From Escherichia coli (GTDB lineage: Bacteria > Pseudomonadota > Gammaproteobacteria > Enterobacterales > Enterobacteriaceae): DNA of 64,000 nucleotides. The stretch is taken from the NCBI RefSeq assembly GCF_050920415.1, contig NZ_CP169309.1; one strand, written 5' to 3'. Position numbers: made by a program. Below are positions 45,301 through 48,300 of this stretch, one piece after another; position 1 is the stretch's first letter, and every line of letters starts with the position of its first letter.

Positions 45301-48300
45301 TGCCGGTATCGGCAGTATTGCGATGGGGATATTTGCTAACTTACCCGTGGCGCTGGCTCCGGCAATGGGGCTGAACGCCTTCTTTGCGTTCGTTGTCGTG
45401 GGGGCGATGGGCATCTCCTGGCAGACCGGGATGGGCGCAATATTCTGGGGCGCAATTGGGCTATTTTTGCTCACGCTGTTTCGCATCCGGTACTGGATGA
45501 TCTCCAACATTCCATTAAGTTTACGTATTGGTATCACTAGCGGAATCGGATTATTTATCGCCTTAATGGGGTTAAAAAATACTGGTGTTATTGTCGCCAA
45601 TAAAGACACCCTGGTGATGATTGGTGATTTAAGTTCTCACGGTGTGTTGTTAGGTATATTAGGGTTTTTTATTATAACCGTGTTGTCATCTCGTCATTTT
45701 CATGCCGCGGTGCTGGTCTCTATTGTGGTGACGTCTTGCTGTGGATTATTTTTCGGTGATGTTCATTTTAGCGGCGTCTATTCCATTCCGCCTGATATTA
45801 GCGGCGTCATTGGTGAAGTGGATTTGAGTGGCGCATTATCACTTGAACTCGCTGGTATCATTTTCTCCTTTATGCTGATCAACCTATTTGATTCATCAGG
45901 AACATTAATCGGTGTGACTGATAAAGCTGGCTTAATAGATAGTAACGGTAAATTCCCTAATATGAATAAGGCGCTGTATGTTGATAGCGTCAGTTCGGTG
46001 GCGGGCGCGTTTATCGGCACCTCGTCTGTTACCGCCTATATTGAAAGTACTTCTGGTGTGGCAGTTGGTGGTCGAACGGGGCTGACTGCGGTCGTGGTCG
46101 GCATTATGTTTCTGTTGGTTATGTTTTTCTCGCCGCTGGTGGCAATGGTCCCTCCTTACGCCACCGCCGGAGCGTTAATCTTTGTTGGCGTGCTGATGAC
46201 CTCAAGCCTGGCGCGCGTTAACTGGGATGATTTTACCGAATCAGTACCTGCATTTATTACTACGGTGATGATGCCCTTTACTTTCTCGATCACCGAAGGG
46301 ATTGCGCTTGGCTTTATGTCGTACTGCATCATGAAGGTGTGCACCGGGCGCTGGCGCGATCTGAACCTGTGTGTGGTGGTGGTTGCAGCTCTGTTTGCTC
46401 TGAAGATTATTTTGGTGGATTAGTAACTGGCGAGGGTTTCCAGATATCATGAGTTCTGATTACGCAGGAGAACTCATGATCTGGATAATGCTCGCTACGC
46501 TGGCGGTGGTGTTTGTAATTGGTTTTCGGGTGCTGACATCCGGGGCCAGAAAGGCGATTCGCCGTCTCAGCGATCGGCTGAATATTGATGTCGTACCCGT
46601 GGAGTCGATGGTCGATCAAATGGGAAAGTCAGCCGGTGAGGAATTTTTACGTTATTTGCATCGCCCGGATGAGTCGCACCTGCAAAACGCCGCGCAGGTG
46701 TTGCTCATCTGGCAAATTGTCATTGTCGATGGAAGCGAACAGAACCTGCTGCAATGGCATCGGATTTTACAAAAAGCTCGCCTCGCCGCGCCGATTACCG
46801 ATGCTCAGGTCAGGCTGGCGCTGGGTTTTCTGCGCGAAACCGAACCTGAAATGCAGGATATTAATGCTTTTCAGATGCGCTATAACGCATTCTTTCAGCC
46901 TGCTGAGGGCGTTCACTGGCTGCATTAAAACCGTTTCGTCTTATTAGCCTACAGACCGCGCCTGAGCTGGTGGGTGGATAAGGCGTGCACGCCGCATCCG
47001 GCATCGGAACTGACAGTAGGTGAACGCATTATCTACGTTCTATTTACAGCAGCACCTCCAGCCCGTGTTTTTGCACAATGCTGAGCAGTTTTAATGAAAT
47101 GCCATTGGGGCGTTTAGCGCCACTTTCCCATTTTTGTACAGTTGAAACGCTGGTATTGAGATAGTGAGCGAAGACGGGCTGACTCACTTTTAATTTTTCC
47201 CGCAGTGCTTTTATCTCAACAGGTTGTAAGTCTTGCACGCTGGTCAGGCAGGCTTTGTCAAAAGTACGCATCGTTTCGGCAGAAATAGCATCGACGCTGG
47301 ACAATCCAGCAGCTGCGCTGTGAATAGCCTCAAATGCAGGACTTTTAAATTTAGTTTTTGCAGTCATAGCAGATCTCTGTCAGTTCTTTAGTGTTAATCA
47401 TTGCTGTTAGTTGGGCTTTCGTCAGGAAGGCATAATGCTTTGCAAGTTCACGAAACCCAGCCAGTTCCTGACTATTGATGTTCGACATATCCTGTTTTGC
47501 ATATAAAAACGTGTAAAACCAATTGCTTCCCCCTTTTGCCAGAATAATTGCACGCTCACGATTTTGGTGAAGGCGCTTTTTAAAAACGCCACCACCAAGT
47601 GCATCAGCTTTACCTTGCTCCGTTTCTAAAATGGCCCGGCACAACTCTTCATCTGTTATTGCATGAGACCTGGCTTCCCTTGCAAACCATTTGGTTTTAA
47701 ACACGCGCATATCGTTGAGGTCCTGTTATTAAAGTATATCACCAAGTGCAATACTTTATCCCTTATTCCTAACCCAATCGCGAAAATGCATATCAGCTTG
47801 CCCTATGATTTTTATTTCTTCGAGCAGCCTCGAACTTTTCCCACAACACCGTAAAAGTTGCAAAAACGTTAAATGTGTCACACATTTCAGTGTTAAAGTG
47901 GTCGGCTTTTCCGTTGAAACATGCCACGGGTAACACCATGAGTGAATTTATTGCCGAAAACCGCGGCGCGGATGCCATCATCCGACCGAACTGGTCCGCC
48001 GTTTTCTCGGTAGCGTTTTGCGTCGCCTGCCTGATTATCGTTGAGTTTTTGCCCGTCAGTTTGTTGACGCCAATGGCCCAGGATTTAGGTATTTCGGAAG
48101 GGGTTGCCGGGCAATCGGTGACCGTGACCGCCTTTGTGGCAATGTTTGCCAGTTTGTTTATTACCCAGACAATTCAGGCCACTGACCGCCGCTACGTTGT
48201 TATTTTGTTTGCCGTTTTGCTGACGCTCTCCTGCTTGCTGGTTTCCTTTGCCAACTCATTCAGTTTGCTTTTAATCGGTCGTGCCTGTCTGGGGTTGGCA

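Follow-up and report, generated by a model that had tools for sequence, protein, structure and literature searches.

The spacer between yicN and nepI of the Escherichia coli genome studied here holds two small overlapping genes that K-12 does not have. What kind of system do they encode, and was it inserted at this site or was it lost by the strains that are without it? We analyzed a stretch of 64,000 nucleotides from E. coli contig NZ_CP169309.1 (assembly GCF_050920415.1), which is called the window below. The original prediction was an accessory insertion consisting of a RelE/ParE-like toxin gene and an HTH antitoxin gene. A literature search on the nepI-yicN toxin-antitoxin (TA) locus of E. 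coli, in which the Sakai locus tags (ECs4597/ECs4598) were included, found no specific paper and no experimental work. In this study, we conclude that the pair is very probably a type II TA operon of the HigBA-2 kind, with a mechanism modelled on that of Vibrio cholerae, and that it is more likely an old resident of the nepI-yicN gap, lost by K-12-type strains, than a new insertion.

Results

Gene organization at the nepI-yicN junction

The ORFs were exactly as claimed, an overlapping pair in toxin-first order between yicN and nepI (Table 1). Automatic annotation already recognises the two genes as a TA pair. The genes on either side have housekeeping functions in purine transport and metabolism. 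The overlap of the two genes implies one transcript and, probably, translational coupling. The toxin ATG lies at 47710-47708, and this start codon is kept across genera; RefSeq/PGAP places the start at a GTG at 47704, which gives a protein of 117 aa. The RefSeq label of the toxin is the generic 'RelE/ParE family toxin'.

Table 1. Coordinates of the features at the locus, numbered from the first letter of the window
Feature	Position	Strand	Basis or remark
yicN (DUF1198)	46476-46928	+	family match
REP-like element in the gap where yicN and the antitoxin gene end tail to tail	46972..47037	+	
Segment setting the window allele apart from the K-12-type allele	47002..47843	.	842 bp vs 43 bp, MG1655 alignment
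Antitoxin gene, 107 aa, Xre-type HTH	47044..47367	-	ORF scan
Overlap of toxin 3' end and antitoxin start, 17 nt	47351..47367	-	ORF coordinates
Toxin gene, 119 aa, HigB-2 family (PF06296) of the RelE/ParE superfamily	47351..47710	-	ORF scan
Shine-Dalgarno-like AGGA, 10 nt before the toxin ATG	47721..47724	-	read from sequence
Imperfect palindrome, candidate operator	47730..47758	.	inverted-repeat search
Candidate extended -10 element TGaTATACT	47733..47741	-	read from sequence; in the right arm of the palindrome
nepI (NF007578, E 4.6e-254)	47938-49122	+	family match

The REP element that had been noted beside the pair was also found: an inverted-repeat search placed its palindromic core at 46976-46999, and alignment with MG1655 showed that the element is common to K-12 up to 47001. 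Rfam matched the whole element to naRNA4, a REP-derived family, at 33.9 bits and thus below the gathering score of 59.5. A sub-threshold Rfam match to an miRNA at the TA locus was dismissed as spurious.

Family, fold and catalytic residues of the toxin

The toxin matched the Pfam family PF06296 ('RelE') with an E value of 8.8e-42 and 142.6 bits (cut-off 27), residues 1-113 being aligned to model positions 1-120, that is, to all 120 positions. Judged by this match, the toxin is a central member of PF06296, the HigB-2 family, which consists of ribosome-dependent mRNases encoded in toxin-antitoxin gene order (PMC11980606). The 'RelE/ParE-like' label of the original prediction can accordingly be kept for the RelE superfamily and narrowed to the HigB-2 family; its ParE part is unlikely.

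The AF2 model of the toxin (pLDDT 86, pTM 0.78) has the element order E-H-H-E-E-E-E-H-H-E. In this model the N-terminal helices lie on an antiparallel beta-sheet, as in the RelE/BECR fold. When the model was compared with the PDB by Foldseek, ranks 1-6 were all V. cholerae HigB2 (probability 1.00, TM 0.51-0.61), and the next matches were HigB1, Cami1, YoeB and YafQ. The likeness to HigB2 is moderate, with TM values of 0.5-0.6 and about 20% identity.

Mutagenesis has identified Arg51, Arg64, Tyr82 and Lys84 as the catalytic residues of V. cholerae HigB2 (VcHigB2) (PMC5416850). An hhalign alignment, itself a weak link (E 8.6e-4, probability 24%), placed them on R46, R53, Y70 and K72 of the toxin. 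In a family alignment of 28 sequences, R46 was Arg in 26, R53 was Arg in 27, Y70 was Tyr or Phe in 27 and K72 was Lys in 27. This family-wide retention argues for ongoing selection on activity. Neither phmmer nor two profiles of the toxin subfamily found a HigB2 chain among the PDB sequences. Since there was no direct sequence link to a solved structure, the connection with HigB2 required the fold search, Pfam and hhalign.

Compared with VcHigB2, the basic beta2-beta3 loop of the toxin subfamily is six residues shorter, and there is an additional C-terminal helix and strand (residues 98-115), with an invariant E112, which no solved structure covers. For this reason the toxin may not follow VcHigB2 in every detail of how it binds the ribosome and is neutralised. 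The helix-strand extension of PF06296 with its invariant Glu, in particular, might serve a way of neutralisation or of ribosome docking unlike that of VcHigB2.

The antitoxin

The antitoxin matched HTH_3 in Pfam (E 6.7e-8, 32.9 bits, cut-off 23), so that both halves of the predicted pair, a RelE-superfamily toxin and an HTH antitoxin, are borne out. Its HTH domain (about residues 46-102) is, by sequence comparison, homologous to that of V. cholerae HigA-2 (5JAA, 8A0W, 8A0X; E 8.3e-10 by phmmer and 9.9e-14 by profile). The alignment, of residues 46-101/102 with HigA-2 residues 38-93/94, covers the HTH domain only. The N-terminal segment, about residues 1-45, is presumed to be the toxin-neutralising part. 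It has no detectable sequence homology to the N-terminus of V. cholerae HigA2 (VcHigA2). Within it, a motif (S9, A11, F12, A14, I15, H16 ... R34, F36, D37) is kept from Enterobacterales to Alpha- and Betaproteobacteria. In an AF2 model of a fused toxin-linker-antitoxin chain this segment was helical with a pLDDT of 90-95, which speaks for the helices and is no proof of an interface.

In all 80 species-representative loci the toxin gene was followed directly by a gene for an antitoxin homologue, with a similar overlap or a very short gap. Small, co-oriented, adjacent or overlapping genes are thus kept as a pair, as in type II TA operons. NadS, which had been named as a possible antitoxin family, was rejected because NF041265 scored 41.3 bits against a cut-off of 60; TIGR03830 (41.1/61.8) and PF15731 (26.3/30) were likewise below their cut-offs, and all these MqsA/NadS-type matches concerned the HTH part only. 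The antitoxin has a single Cys and lacks the N-terminal domain with a CxxC zinc finger that TIGR03830 names. The only 'nadS' paper found deals with an unrelated small gene of K-12.

Promoter region and candidate operator

The candidate operator lies 20-48 nt upstream of the toxin start and reads AAAGTATTGCAC-TTG-GTGATATACTTT on the minus strand. Its arms, with the consensus TATAGCAC-N3-GTGCTATA, are kept in Escherichia, Citrobacter, Salmonella and Klebsiella, and across these genera the 3-nt spacer and the surrounding sequence are variable. Because a generic scan for -35/-10 promoters and terminators found nothing at the TA locus, the -10 element is put forward as a candidate. The motif TGnTATACT is kept in C. 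koseri, C. amalonaticus, Salmonella and K. pneumoniae, and K. oxytoca has TGcTATATT. The sequence ACAGGA, which includes the Shine-Dalgarno-like AGGA, is kept across genera except in the E69 allele.

Distribution and alleles in E. coli

The pair was carried by 1716 of 5426 complete E. coli genomes (32%), and 3668 had the K-12-type empty junction; the site is thus not universally occupied. These two alleles together account for 99.2% of the genomes, and each of the 1716 carriers has one chromosomal copy. Both observations place the module at the nepI-yicN junction. The carriers include O157:H7, where the genes bear the tags ECs4597 and ECs4598 in strain Sakai. The E. coli copies diverge by 1-5%, as core genes do.

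The yicN-nepI spacer is 210 bp in K-12 MG1655 and about 1009 bp in the window. As the original prediction had it, the pair is absent from K-12, in which 43 bp stand in place of 842 bp. The 842-bp segment contains the whole operon with its promoter region, and its GC content is 43.6% compared with 50.4% for the window. The 43-bp filler of K-12 is identical in UTI89. It aligns collinearly with the toxin gene at 17 of 19 positions, a level reached by 5 of 1000 shuffles, and by sequence it may hold a scrap of that gene; against the allele present in the window the match is marginal, at 58 of 1000 shuffles. Some two thirds of E. coli, K-12 included, appear to have lost the module through a single old deletion allele.

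The toxin ATG is changed to ATA, with the antitoxin intact, in 630 of 1711 typed E. coli carriers (about 37%). Strains with the ATA allele include O157:H7, O145 and MINF_1A. The window keeps the ATG, and its Shine-Dalgarno sequence and four catalytic positions are intact. The E. coli copies that were examined have a complete toxin ORF, and among those listed a frameshift annotation was present only in HS-02. The 'divergent' HS-02 copy (78% identity) was not accepted as a real variant, since its many homopolymer runs suggest a faulty assembly. That the E. coli-type copy is carried on plasmids was also rejected: the two matches above 60% identity were chromosome-sized records of 4.9 and 5.4 Mb filed as plasmids.

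The locus in other genera

The order nepI-TA-yicN was also found in C. koseri and C. amalonaticus and in K. pneumoniae, K. oxytoca, K. michiganensis, K. grimontii and K. indica; in Salmonella the TA pair adjoins nepI. Between E. coli and C. koseri the identity was 85% for the antitoxin, 72% for the toxin, 87% for NepI and 83% for YicN, and across genera the identity of the toxin followed that of NepI (Spearman rho 0.94). The module has a GC content of 44.5-48% in hosts whose nepI has 52-62%, and a low GC that is constant in all genera gives no sign of recent arrival. No integrase, transposase, att-like or flanking direct repeat, or tRNA was found at the TA site. The locus therefore does not have the character of a mobile island, lower GC being its only island-like trait.

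In a neighbour-joining tree, made without bootstrap from short proteins, the syntenic copies did not come together in a single clean clade; nested among them was a cluster with short branches that appears to be mobile. This cluster and the steadily low GC of the module count against simple vertical descent. Relatives occur on plasmids (130 records). A single 'phage' record was rejected as evidence of phage carriage because it is a 515-kb Salmonella contig. A close relative in Edwardsiella lies beside a type I R-M methylase, and one in Pectobacterium beside an HD-CE/HATPase protein and an integrase.

Discussion

By analogy with the V. cholerae homologue, the system would be expected to show toxicity, mRNA cleavage, neutralisation and autoregulation. 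One minus-strand transcript would start from a promoter some 25-30 nt ahead of the toxin gene and would encode the 119-aa toxin and then, through the 17-nt overlap, the 107-aa antitoxin. The toxin would enter the ribosomal A site and cut translating mRNA by means of R46, R53, Y70 and K72. The N-terminal segment of the antitoxin would wrap around the toxin and block its activity, and its C-terminal HTH, as a dimer on the palindrome that lies over the -10 element, would repress the operon. When the antitoxin is degraded or its synthesis stops, free toxin would arrest translation.

Other views of the function can be weighed against this mechanism. It is extremely unlikely that the toxin is a ParE-like poison of DNA gyrase with no mRNase activity. 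The RefSeq label mentions ParE, and the fold is common to ParE and RelE (PMC11980606). However, PF05016 gave no match at E values up to 0.01 and PF06296 was the only Pfam family matched, the studied member of which cleaves mRNA on the ribosome (PMC11980606). The toxin has the catalytic residues of the RelE type, and these are conserved; the nearest structures are those of the mRNases HigB2, HigB1, YoeB and YafQ, a ParDE chain appearing at rank 39 with an E value of about 1. A main role in anti-phage abortive infection, in which phage shut-off would deplete the antitoxin and free the toxin, concerns the role of the module and is no rival mechanism; we regard it as rather unlikely. PMC11980606 treats toxins of the HigB-2 family as defence toxins, and the Edwardsiella and Pectobacterium relatives have neighbours such as the R-M methylase and the HD-CE/HATPase protein with an integrase. 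Against this, no PADLOC family matched the toxin (the antitoxin had weak generic HTH matches), the neighbours in the window serve purine transport and metabolism with no defence genes among them, and no copy was present in a genuine phage record. The phage-defence or island-stabilisation role suggested in the original prediction is therefore without support at this locus.

The history of the locus allows two further interpretations. In the first, the module is a recent, horizontally acquired accessory insertion into an empty yicN-nepI spacer, and the K-12 state is ancestral. Only 32% of complete E. coli genomes are carriers, the segment has the lower GC noted above, relatives are found on plasmids or, in Pectobacterium and Edwardsiella, next to an integrase or transposase, and the short-branched tree cluster shows that the family is able to move between genera. 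We nevertheless consider a recent insertion improbable. Neither a mobility gene nor an att-like direct repeat nor a tRNA is present at the site; the gene order is constant in Citrobacter and Klebsiella, with the pair still next to nepI in Salmonella, and the divergence scales with that of NepI; low GC is a property of the module in every genus. Moreover, the E. coli copies vary like core genes and are never on plasmids, and the empty allele has non-homologous filler, possibly with a toxin remnant, rather than a clean target site. In the second interpretation, the module is in decay or has been domesticated: the toxin would be inactive and the HTH protein kept chiefly as a regulator of its own promoter or of other genes, conceivably the divergent nepI. 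The ATA allele with its intact antitoxin would fit, as would the better conservation of the antitoxin than of the toxin (85% against 72% to C. koseri) and the two thirds of E. coli that live without the module. Other HigA-type antitoxins are reported as regulators of further genes, namely HigA2 of Mycobacterium tuberculosis (PMC11205783) and HigA of Pseudomonas aeruginosa (cited in PMC11598369). Domestication is nonetheless quite unlikely, given the intact ATG, Shine-Dalgarno sequence and catalytic positions in the window, the full-length toxin ORF in the E. coli copies examined and the continued selection on activity for which the family-wide catalytic residues argue. In addition, the region upstream of nepI (47844-47937) is common to strains without the TA pair, which indicates that nepI is independent of the pair. 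We also give little credence to a composite history, in which a fixed-site TA module predates the split of Escherichia, Salmonella, Citrobacter and Klebsiella and persists as an old polymorphism while its toxin is switching off and its antitoxin is becoming a stand-alone HTH regulator, possibly of the divergent nepI promoter.

Shared synteny, divergence that tracks NepI and the possible remnant in the filler together make it more likely that the module is an old occupant of the nepI-yicN gap in Enterobacteriaceae, lost in K-12-type strains, than that it was gained by the carriers. The accessory insertion of the original prediction thus holds in one respect, as the module is variable in E. coli and absent from K-12. 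The word 'insertion' is not supported by the comparison of the yicN-nepI junctions, in which the pair occupied the same gap in Citrobacter and Klebsiella.

These results add to the repertoire of E. coli a chromosomal type II TA module that is absent from K-12 and present in about a third of genomes. The stability of its site across several enterobacterial genera is unusual for modules that are normally seen as mobile. The natural ATG and ATA variants of the toxin provide isogenic-like material for asking whether chromosomal modules of this kind are active, attenuated or decaying. The module is otherwise an ordinary member of a well-understood family.

Comparison with known systems

The E. coli K-12 HigBA (ygjN-ygjM), the Rts1/Proteus HigBA and MqsRA resemble the window module as toxin-first operons with an HTH antitoxin. 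However, the Pfam families of their toxins are different ones (PF09907, PF05015 and PF15723; PMC11980606). To MqsA the window antitoxin has weak, HTH-only matches, and it differs in having no CxxC zinc-finger domain. The HigBA2 of Acinetobacter baumannii (pAB120) is alike in name and toxin-first order; it was rejected as a relative because its toxin is a GP49-domain protein of a different family (PMC5906591). 'DUF1044/RelB' was also set aside as a characterised relative, the only mention being of a transcriptome in a review.

RelBE of E. coli K-12 shares the superfamily, the fold and the expected ribosome-dependent cleavage of mRNA. The gene order of relBE is antitoxin first, and RelB is not an Xre HTH protein. 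RelE also differs in its Pfam family (PF05016), and no RelE chain was among the top 50 Foldseek PDB matches of the toxin. The active site of VcHigB2 has been described as nearly the same as the one in E. coli RelE (PMC5416850), so that the putative Arg/Arg/Tyr/Lys site of the window toxin would be RelE-like.

The closest system is HigBA-2 of V. cholerae (VCA0468-type; 5JA8, 5JA9, 5JAA, 5MJE, 8A0X), which has a PF06296 toxin and the toxin-first order. VcHigB2 has the RelE-like fold, is the best structural match and shares the four catalytic positions retained in the window toxin. It differs as a peripheral, shorter member of PF06296: its sequence, verified against 5JA9, scored 34.5 bits over model positions 8-96, whereas the window toxin spans the whole model at 142.6 bits. 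The toxins have only about 20% identity and no direct profile link, and the window toxin is without the six beta2-beta3 loop residues and has the C-terminal helix and strand in addition. VcHigA2, with 103-104 aa against 107, is likewise built of an N-terminal segment and a C-terminal Xre HTH, of which the HTH is homologous and the N-terminus is not detectably so. The module of V. cholerae is reported to be part of the superintegron, whereas the window module occupies a fixed core-genome site. VcHigBA2 has been crystallised on its operator DNA (8A0X), and the window has a palindromic candidate operator at the promoter.

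Organization of the locus

The 119-aa HigB-2-family toxin and the 107-aa HTH antitoxin are encoded in toxin-first order with a 17-nt overlap of their ORFs, exactly where the original prediction had placed them. The REP element that it had put at the flank was also seen, on the antitoxin-gene side of yicN; the match of this element to Rfam naRNA4 was below threshold.

Features of the yicN-nepI region (window coordinates)
Feature	Position	Strand	Remark
adeD	43148-44914	-	neighbour
adeQ	to 46423	+	neighbour
yicN (DUF1198)	46476-46928	+	neighbour
REP-like palindrome	46976-46999		between convergent ends of yicN and antitoxin gene
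Antitoxin ORF, 107 aa	47044-47367	-	ORF list
Toxin ORF, 119 aa	47351-47710	-	ORF list
AGGA	47724-47721	-	upstream of toxin ATG
TGaTATACT, extended -10-like motif	47741-47733	-	upstream of toxin ATG
Imperfect palindrome AAAGTATTGCAC-TTG-GTGATATACTTT	47758-47730	-	upstream of toxin ATG
nepI	47938-49122	+	NCBIfam NF007578, E 4.6e-254
Inverse-autotransporter adhesin gene, very large	49325-59001	+	neighbour, adjoins nepI

At the 5' end of nepI (47875-47937), the longest ORF starts from a GTG at 47875 (415 aa) and the RefSeq start is at 47938 (394 aa); alignment to the NepI family model begins at residue 22. The adhesin is split into overlapping ORFs of 2905 aa (49325-58042) and 341 aa (57976-59001). 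Its counterpart in strain 2013C-4282, iatC, is intact and 9678 nt long. The two ORFs jointly span 9677 nt, one base less, so the split reflects either a frameshift or a sequencing error in a homopolymer. The adhesin position holds yicS-nlpA in K-12 and O157 and an 'EaeX/Air' adhesin in MINF_1A. The adenine permease gene adeQ (adeP), two genes away from the TA pair, is a complete ORF in the window and an annotated frameshifted pseudogene in O157:H7 86-24 (L002 2061-3394) and Sakai (L093 39714-41047).

Toxin and antitoxin families

The toxin aligned with the full length of the PF06296 model of Pfam (E 8.8e-42, 142.6 bits, cut-off 27). This is the family of V. cholerae HigB-2, which comprises ribosome-dependent mRNases with toxin-antitoxin gene order (2025 RelE/ParE superfamily survey, PMC11980606). 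VcHigB-2 itself, represented by a sequence identical to PDB 5JA9 chain C, scored only 34.5 bits over model positions 8-96; the window toxin is therefore a central member of PF06296 and the solved VcHigB-2 a peripheral one. Sequence searches with the window protein or two family profiles reached no PDB chain for the toxin. The six best Foldseek matches of its AlphaFold2 model (pLDDT 86, pTM 0.78) were all VcHigB2 chains (probability 1.00, TM 0.51-0.61, identity ~20%), followed by M. tuberculosis HigB1, Cami1, YoeB and YafQ. The VcHigB2 active site defined by mutagenesis, Arg51, Arg64, Tyr82 and Lys84 (PMC5416850), corresponds to R46, R53, Y70 and K72 of the toxin in a profile-sequence alignment that is weak (E 8.6e-4) and consistent with the motifs. 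Among 28 diverse members, these putative catalytic positions carry Arg in 26, Arg in 27, Tyr or Phe in 27 and Lys in 27, respectively. The toxin and antitoxin genes were paired at all 80 loci.

The antitoxin matched HTH_3, and its best solved relative was V. cholerae HigA-2 (5JAA, 8A0W, 8A0X; single-sequence search, E 8e-10; 27-member profile, E 1e-13). This match is confined to the HTH domain, residues 46-101, and no similarity to VcHigA2 was detectable in the N-terminal 45 residues. The N-terminal segment is strikingly conserved within the family (S9, A11, F12, A14, I15, H16, A19, L22, T32, R34, F36, D37 and C40) and is helical, at pLDDT 90-95, in a toxin-linker-antitoxin fusion model built with a naturally paired alignment; the predicted helices would fit a toxin-binding segment. 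Models of MqsA and of the YiaG type scored below cut-off, as did that of NadS, a family that the original prediction had named for an HMM search.

Operon signals and toxin start codon

The palindrome arms, with the consensus TATAGCAC-N3-GTGCTATA, are kept in Escherichia, Citrobacter, Salmonella and Klebsiella, as is TGnTATACT except in K. oxytoca (TGcTATATT). The 3-nt spacer and the flanking sequence vary across these genera. An operator that overlaps its promoter would be expected to show conservation of this kind, and the palindrome is a candidate for such a site. A generic sigma-70 scan yielded no promoter, and no intrinsic terminator was found either; the REP hairpin may form the 3' end of the TA transcript.

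Every genus examined keeps the toxin ATG (47708-47710), and in most of them codon 3 could not serve as a start. ATA replaces the ATG in O157:H7 86-24, MINF_1A and HS-02; the window carries the ATG allele. When the alleles were counted with two 39-mers designed so that every megablast seed spans the variant base, 1081 complete E. coli genomes had ATG and 630 had ATA (1711 of the 1716 carriers). PGAP starts both alleles at a GTG two codons downstream, which accommodates ATA and lies 16 nt from AGGA. Such a spacing is poor for translation initiation. These features suggest attenuated toxin synthesis in ~37% of carriers.

Distribution in E. coli

The 731-bp TA segment is present, as a single chromosomal copy, in 1716 of 5426 complete E. 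coli genomes (425 at at least 99% identity, 1290 at 95-99%), and is 100% identical in strain 2013C-4282 and ten others. Carriers include O157:H7, O145 strains, O169:H41 and MINF_1A. In O157:H7 Sakai the genes are ECs4597/ECs4598, annotated 'hypothetical protein' and 'transcriptional regulator'; only ~4 kb separate the Sakai pair (L093 34440-39093 region) from the LEE island SpLE4, as judged by the annotated island end. One copy, that of HS-02 (NZ_CP172818.1; L003 3900-4700), appeared to be only '78% identical'; it abounds in homopolymer-like runs, has an annotated frameshift, and looks like a low-quality assembly region, not like a divergent allele.

The K-12-type junction is intact in 3668 of the 5426 genomes, including K-12, BW25113, IAI1, O111:H8 and UTI89, and the two alleles jointly cover 99.2%. 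The absence of the pair from K-12, presumed in the original prediction, was borne out: a 43-bp filler stands there in place of the 842 bp at 47002-47843.

Two ~1 kb contigs in a Collinsella MAG (L012, L054) carry E. coli-type and Klebsiella-type TA sequence with nepI or yicN fragments, most likely through bin contamination.

Discussion

The absence of the pair from K-12 had been taken as the mark of an accessory insertion. Comparison of the yicN-nepI junction, which the original prediction had proposed, speaks against this reading, since the pair is syntenic in other genera. The order nepI-toxin-antitoxin-yicN recurs in C. koseri, C. amalonaticus, K. pneumoniae ATCC 13883, K. oxytoca, K. michiganensis, K. 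grimontii, K. indica, two other Escherichia lineages and one further Enterobacteriaceae species, and in Salmonella the pair adjoins nepI. Neither mobility genes nor flanking direct repeats were found at the locus. Divergence matches that of nepI: between E. coli and C. koseri, identity is 85% for the antitoxin, 72% for the toxin, 87% for NepI and 83% for YicN, and toxin identity tracks NepI identity over 11 syntenic loci (Spearman 0.94). The filler has the same sequence in K-12 and UTI89, which favours a single origin of the empty allele. It also holds 19 nt that are collinear with 47608-47626 of the toxin gene, run in the same direction, and agree with the MINF_1A allele at 17/19 positions (reached by 5 of 1000 shuffles) and with the window allele at 16/19 (58 of 1000). 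Low GC is not a sign of recency, because the module lies at 44.5-48.3% in every genus beside a nepI of 52-62% (L005, L008, L021, L024, L029 and L053; window 47044-47710). The module has not ameliorated towards its host despite apparently long residence. These lines of evidence favour loss from strains of the K-12 type, and a recent insertion is improbable. A caveat to loss is that a neighbor-joining tree built without bootstrap from the concatenated proteins places the syntenic copies on long genus-specific branches rather than in one clean clade, with a short-branched cluster (Pectobacterium, Erwinia, Serratia, Edwardsiella and others) nested among them. The family is mobile at large: plasmids, those of rhizobia among them, often carry more distant relatives at <60% identity (130 records, 68 conjugative), although no copy was found in genuine phage records. 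Two members of the short-branched cluster, close relatives with ~72% toxin identity, lie in mobile or defence-like surroundings (L022 1373-8221; L017 4921-8326), that of Pectobacterium zantedeschiae beside an integrase, a phage Ash protein and a 1061-aa HD-CE + HATPase_c_3 protein, and that of Edwardsiella ictaluri beside a DDE transposase and a type I R-M HsdM methylase. The Enterobacteriaceae nepI copy nevertheless looks resident.

We propose that the two genes form a HigBA-2-like type II TA operon. The comparisons made here show the family, the fold, conservation of the catalytic positions, pairing of the genes and the conserved palindrome. By analogy with V. cholerae HigBA-2 (PMC5416850), from which toxin activity, neutralization, autoregulation and any physiological role are extrapolated, the transcript would run from toxin to antitoxin, with translation probably coupled through the overlap; the toxin would cut mRNA at the A site of the ribosome, using a RelE-like Arg/Arg/Tyr/Lys site; and the antitoxin would neutralize it by the N-terminal segment and repress the promoter by binding the palindrome through its HTH domain. 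Depletion of the antitoxin would then free the toxin. The earlier label 'RelE/ParE-like' holds in its first half. That the toxin is a ParE-like gyrase poison is highly improbable, since PF06296 is the sole family matched, RNase-type residues are present and mRNases are the nearest folds. An anti-phage role would be compatible with the proposed mechanism, but the toxin had no PADLOC match and the nepI locus offers no defence context, and we consider such a role rather unlikely. The module might instead be decayed or domesticated, with the HTH protein as its functional part. This is improbable for the ATG allele of the window and more plausible for ATA alleles, where the suggested attenuation would accord with a slow decay or domestication.

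RefSeq labels the proteins 'type II toxin-antitoxin system RelE/ParE family toxin' and 'helix-turn-helix domain-containing protein'. The family itself is established, with a well-studied archetype; the E. coli module itself is uncharacterized, and our literature search found no experimental work on it or its Enterobacteriaceae orthologues. For specialists, its interest lies in how deeply its position beside nepI is conserved, in the deletion allele of most E. coli, for which a single origin is favoured, and in the common ATG/ATA polymorphism of the toxin start. It lies also in the toxin itself, whose subfamily differs from VcHigB2 in a beta2-beta3 loop six residues shorter and in a C-terminal extension (residues 98-115, a predicted helix and strand with an invariant E112) that is typical of PF06296 and structurally unsolved.
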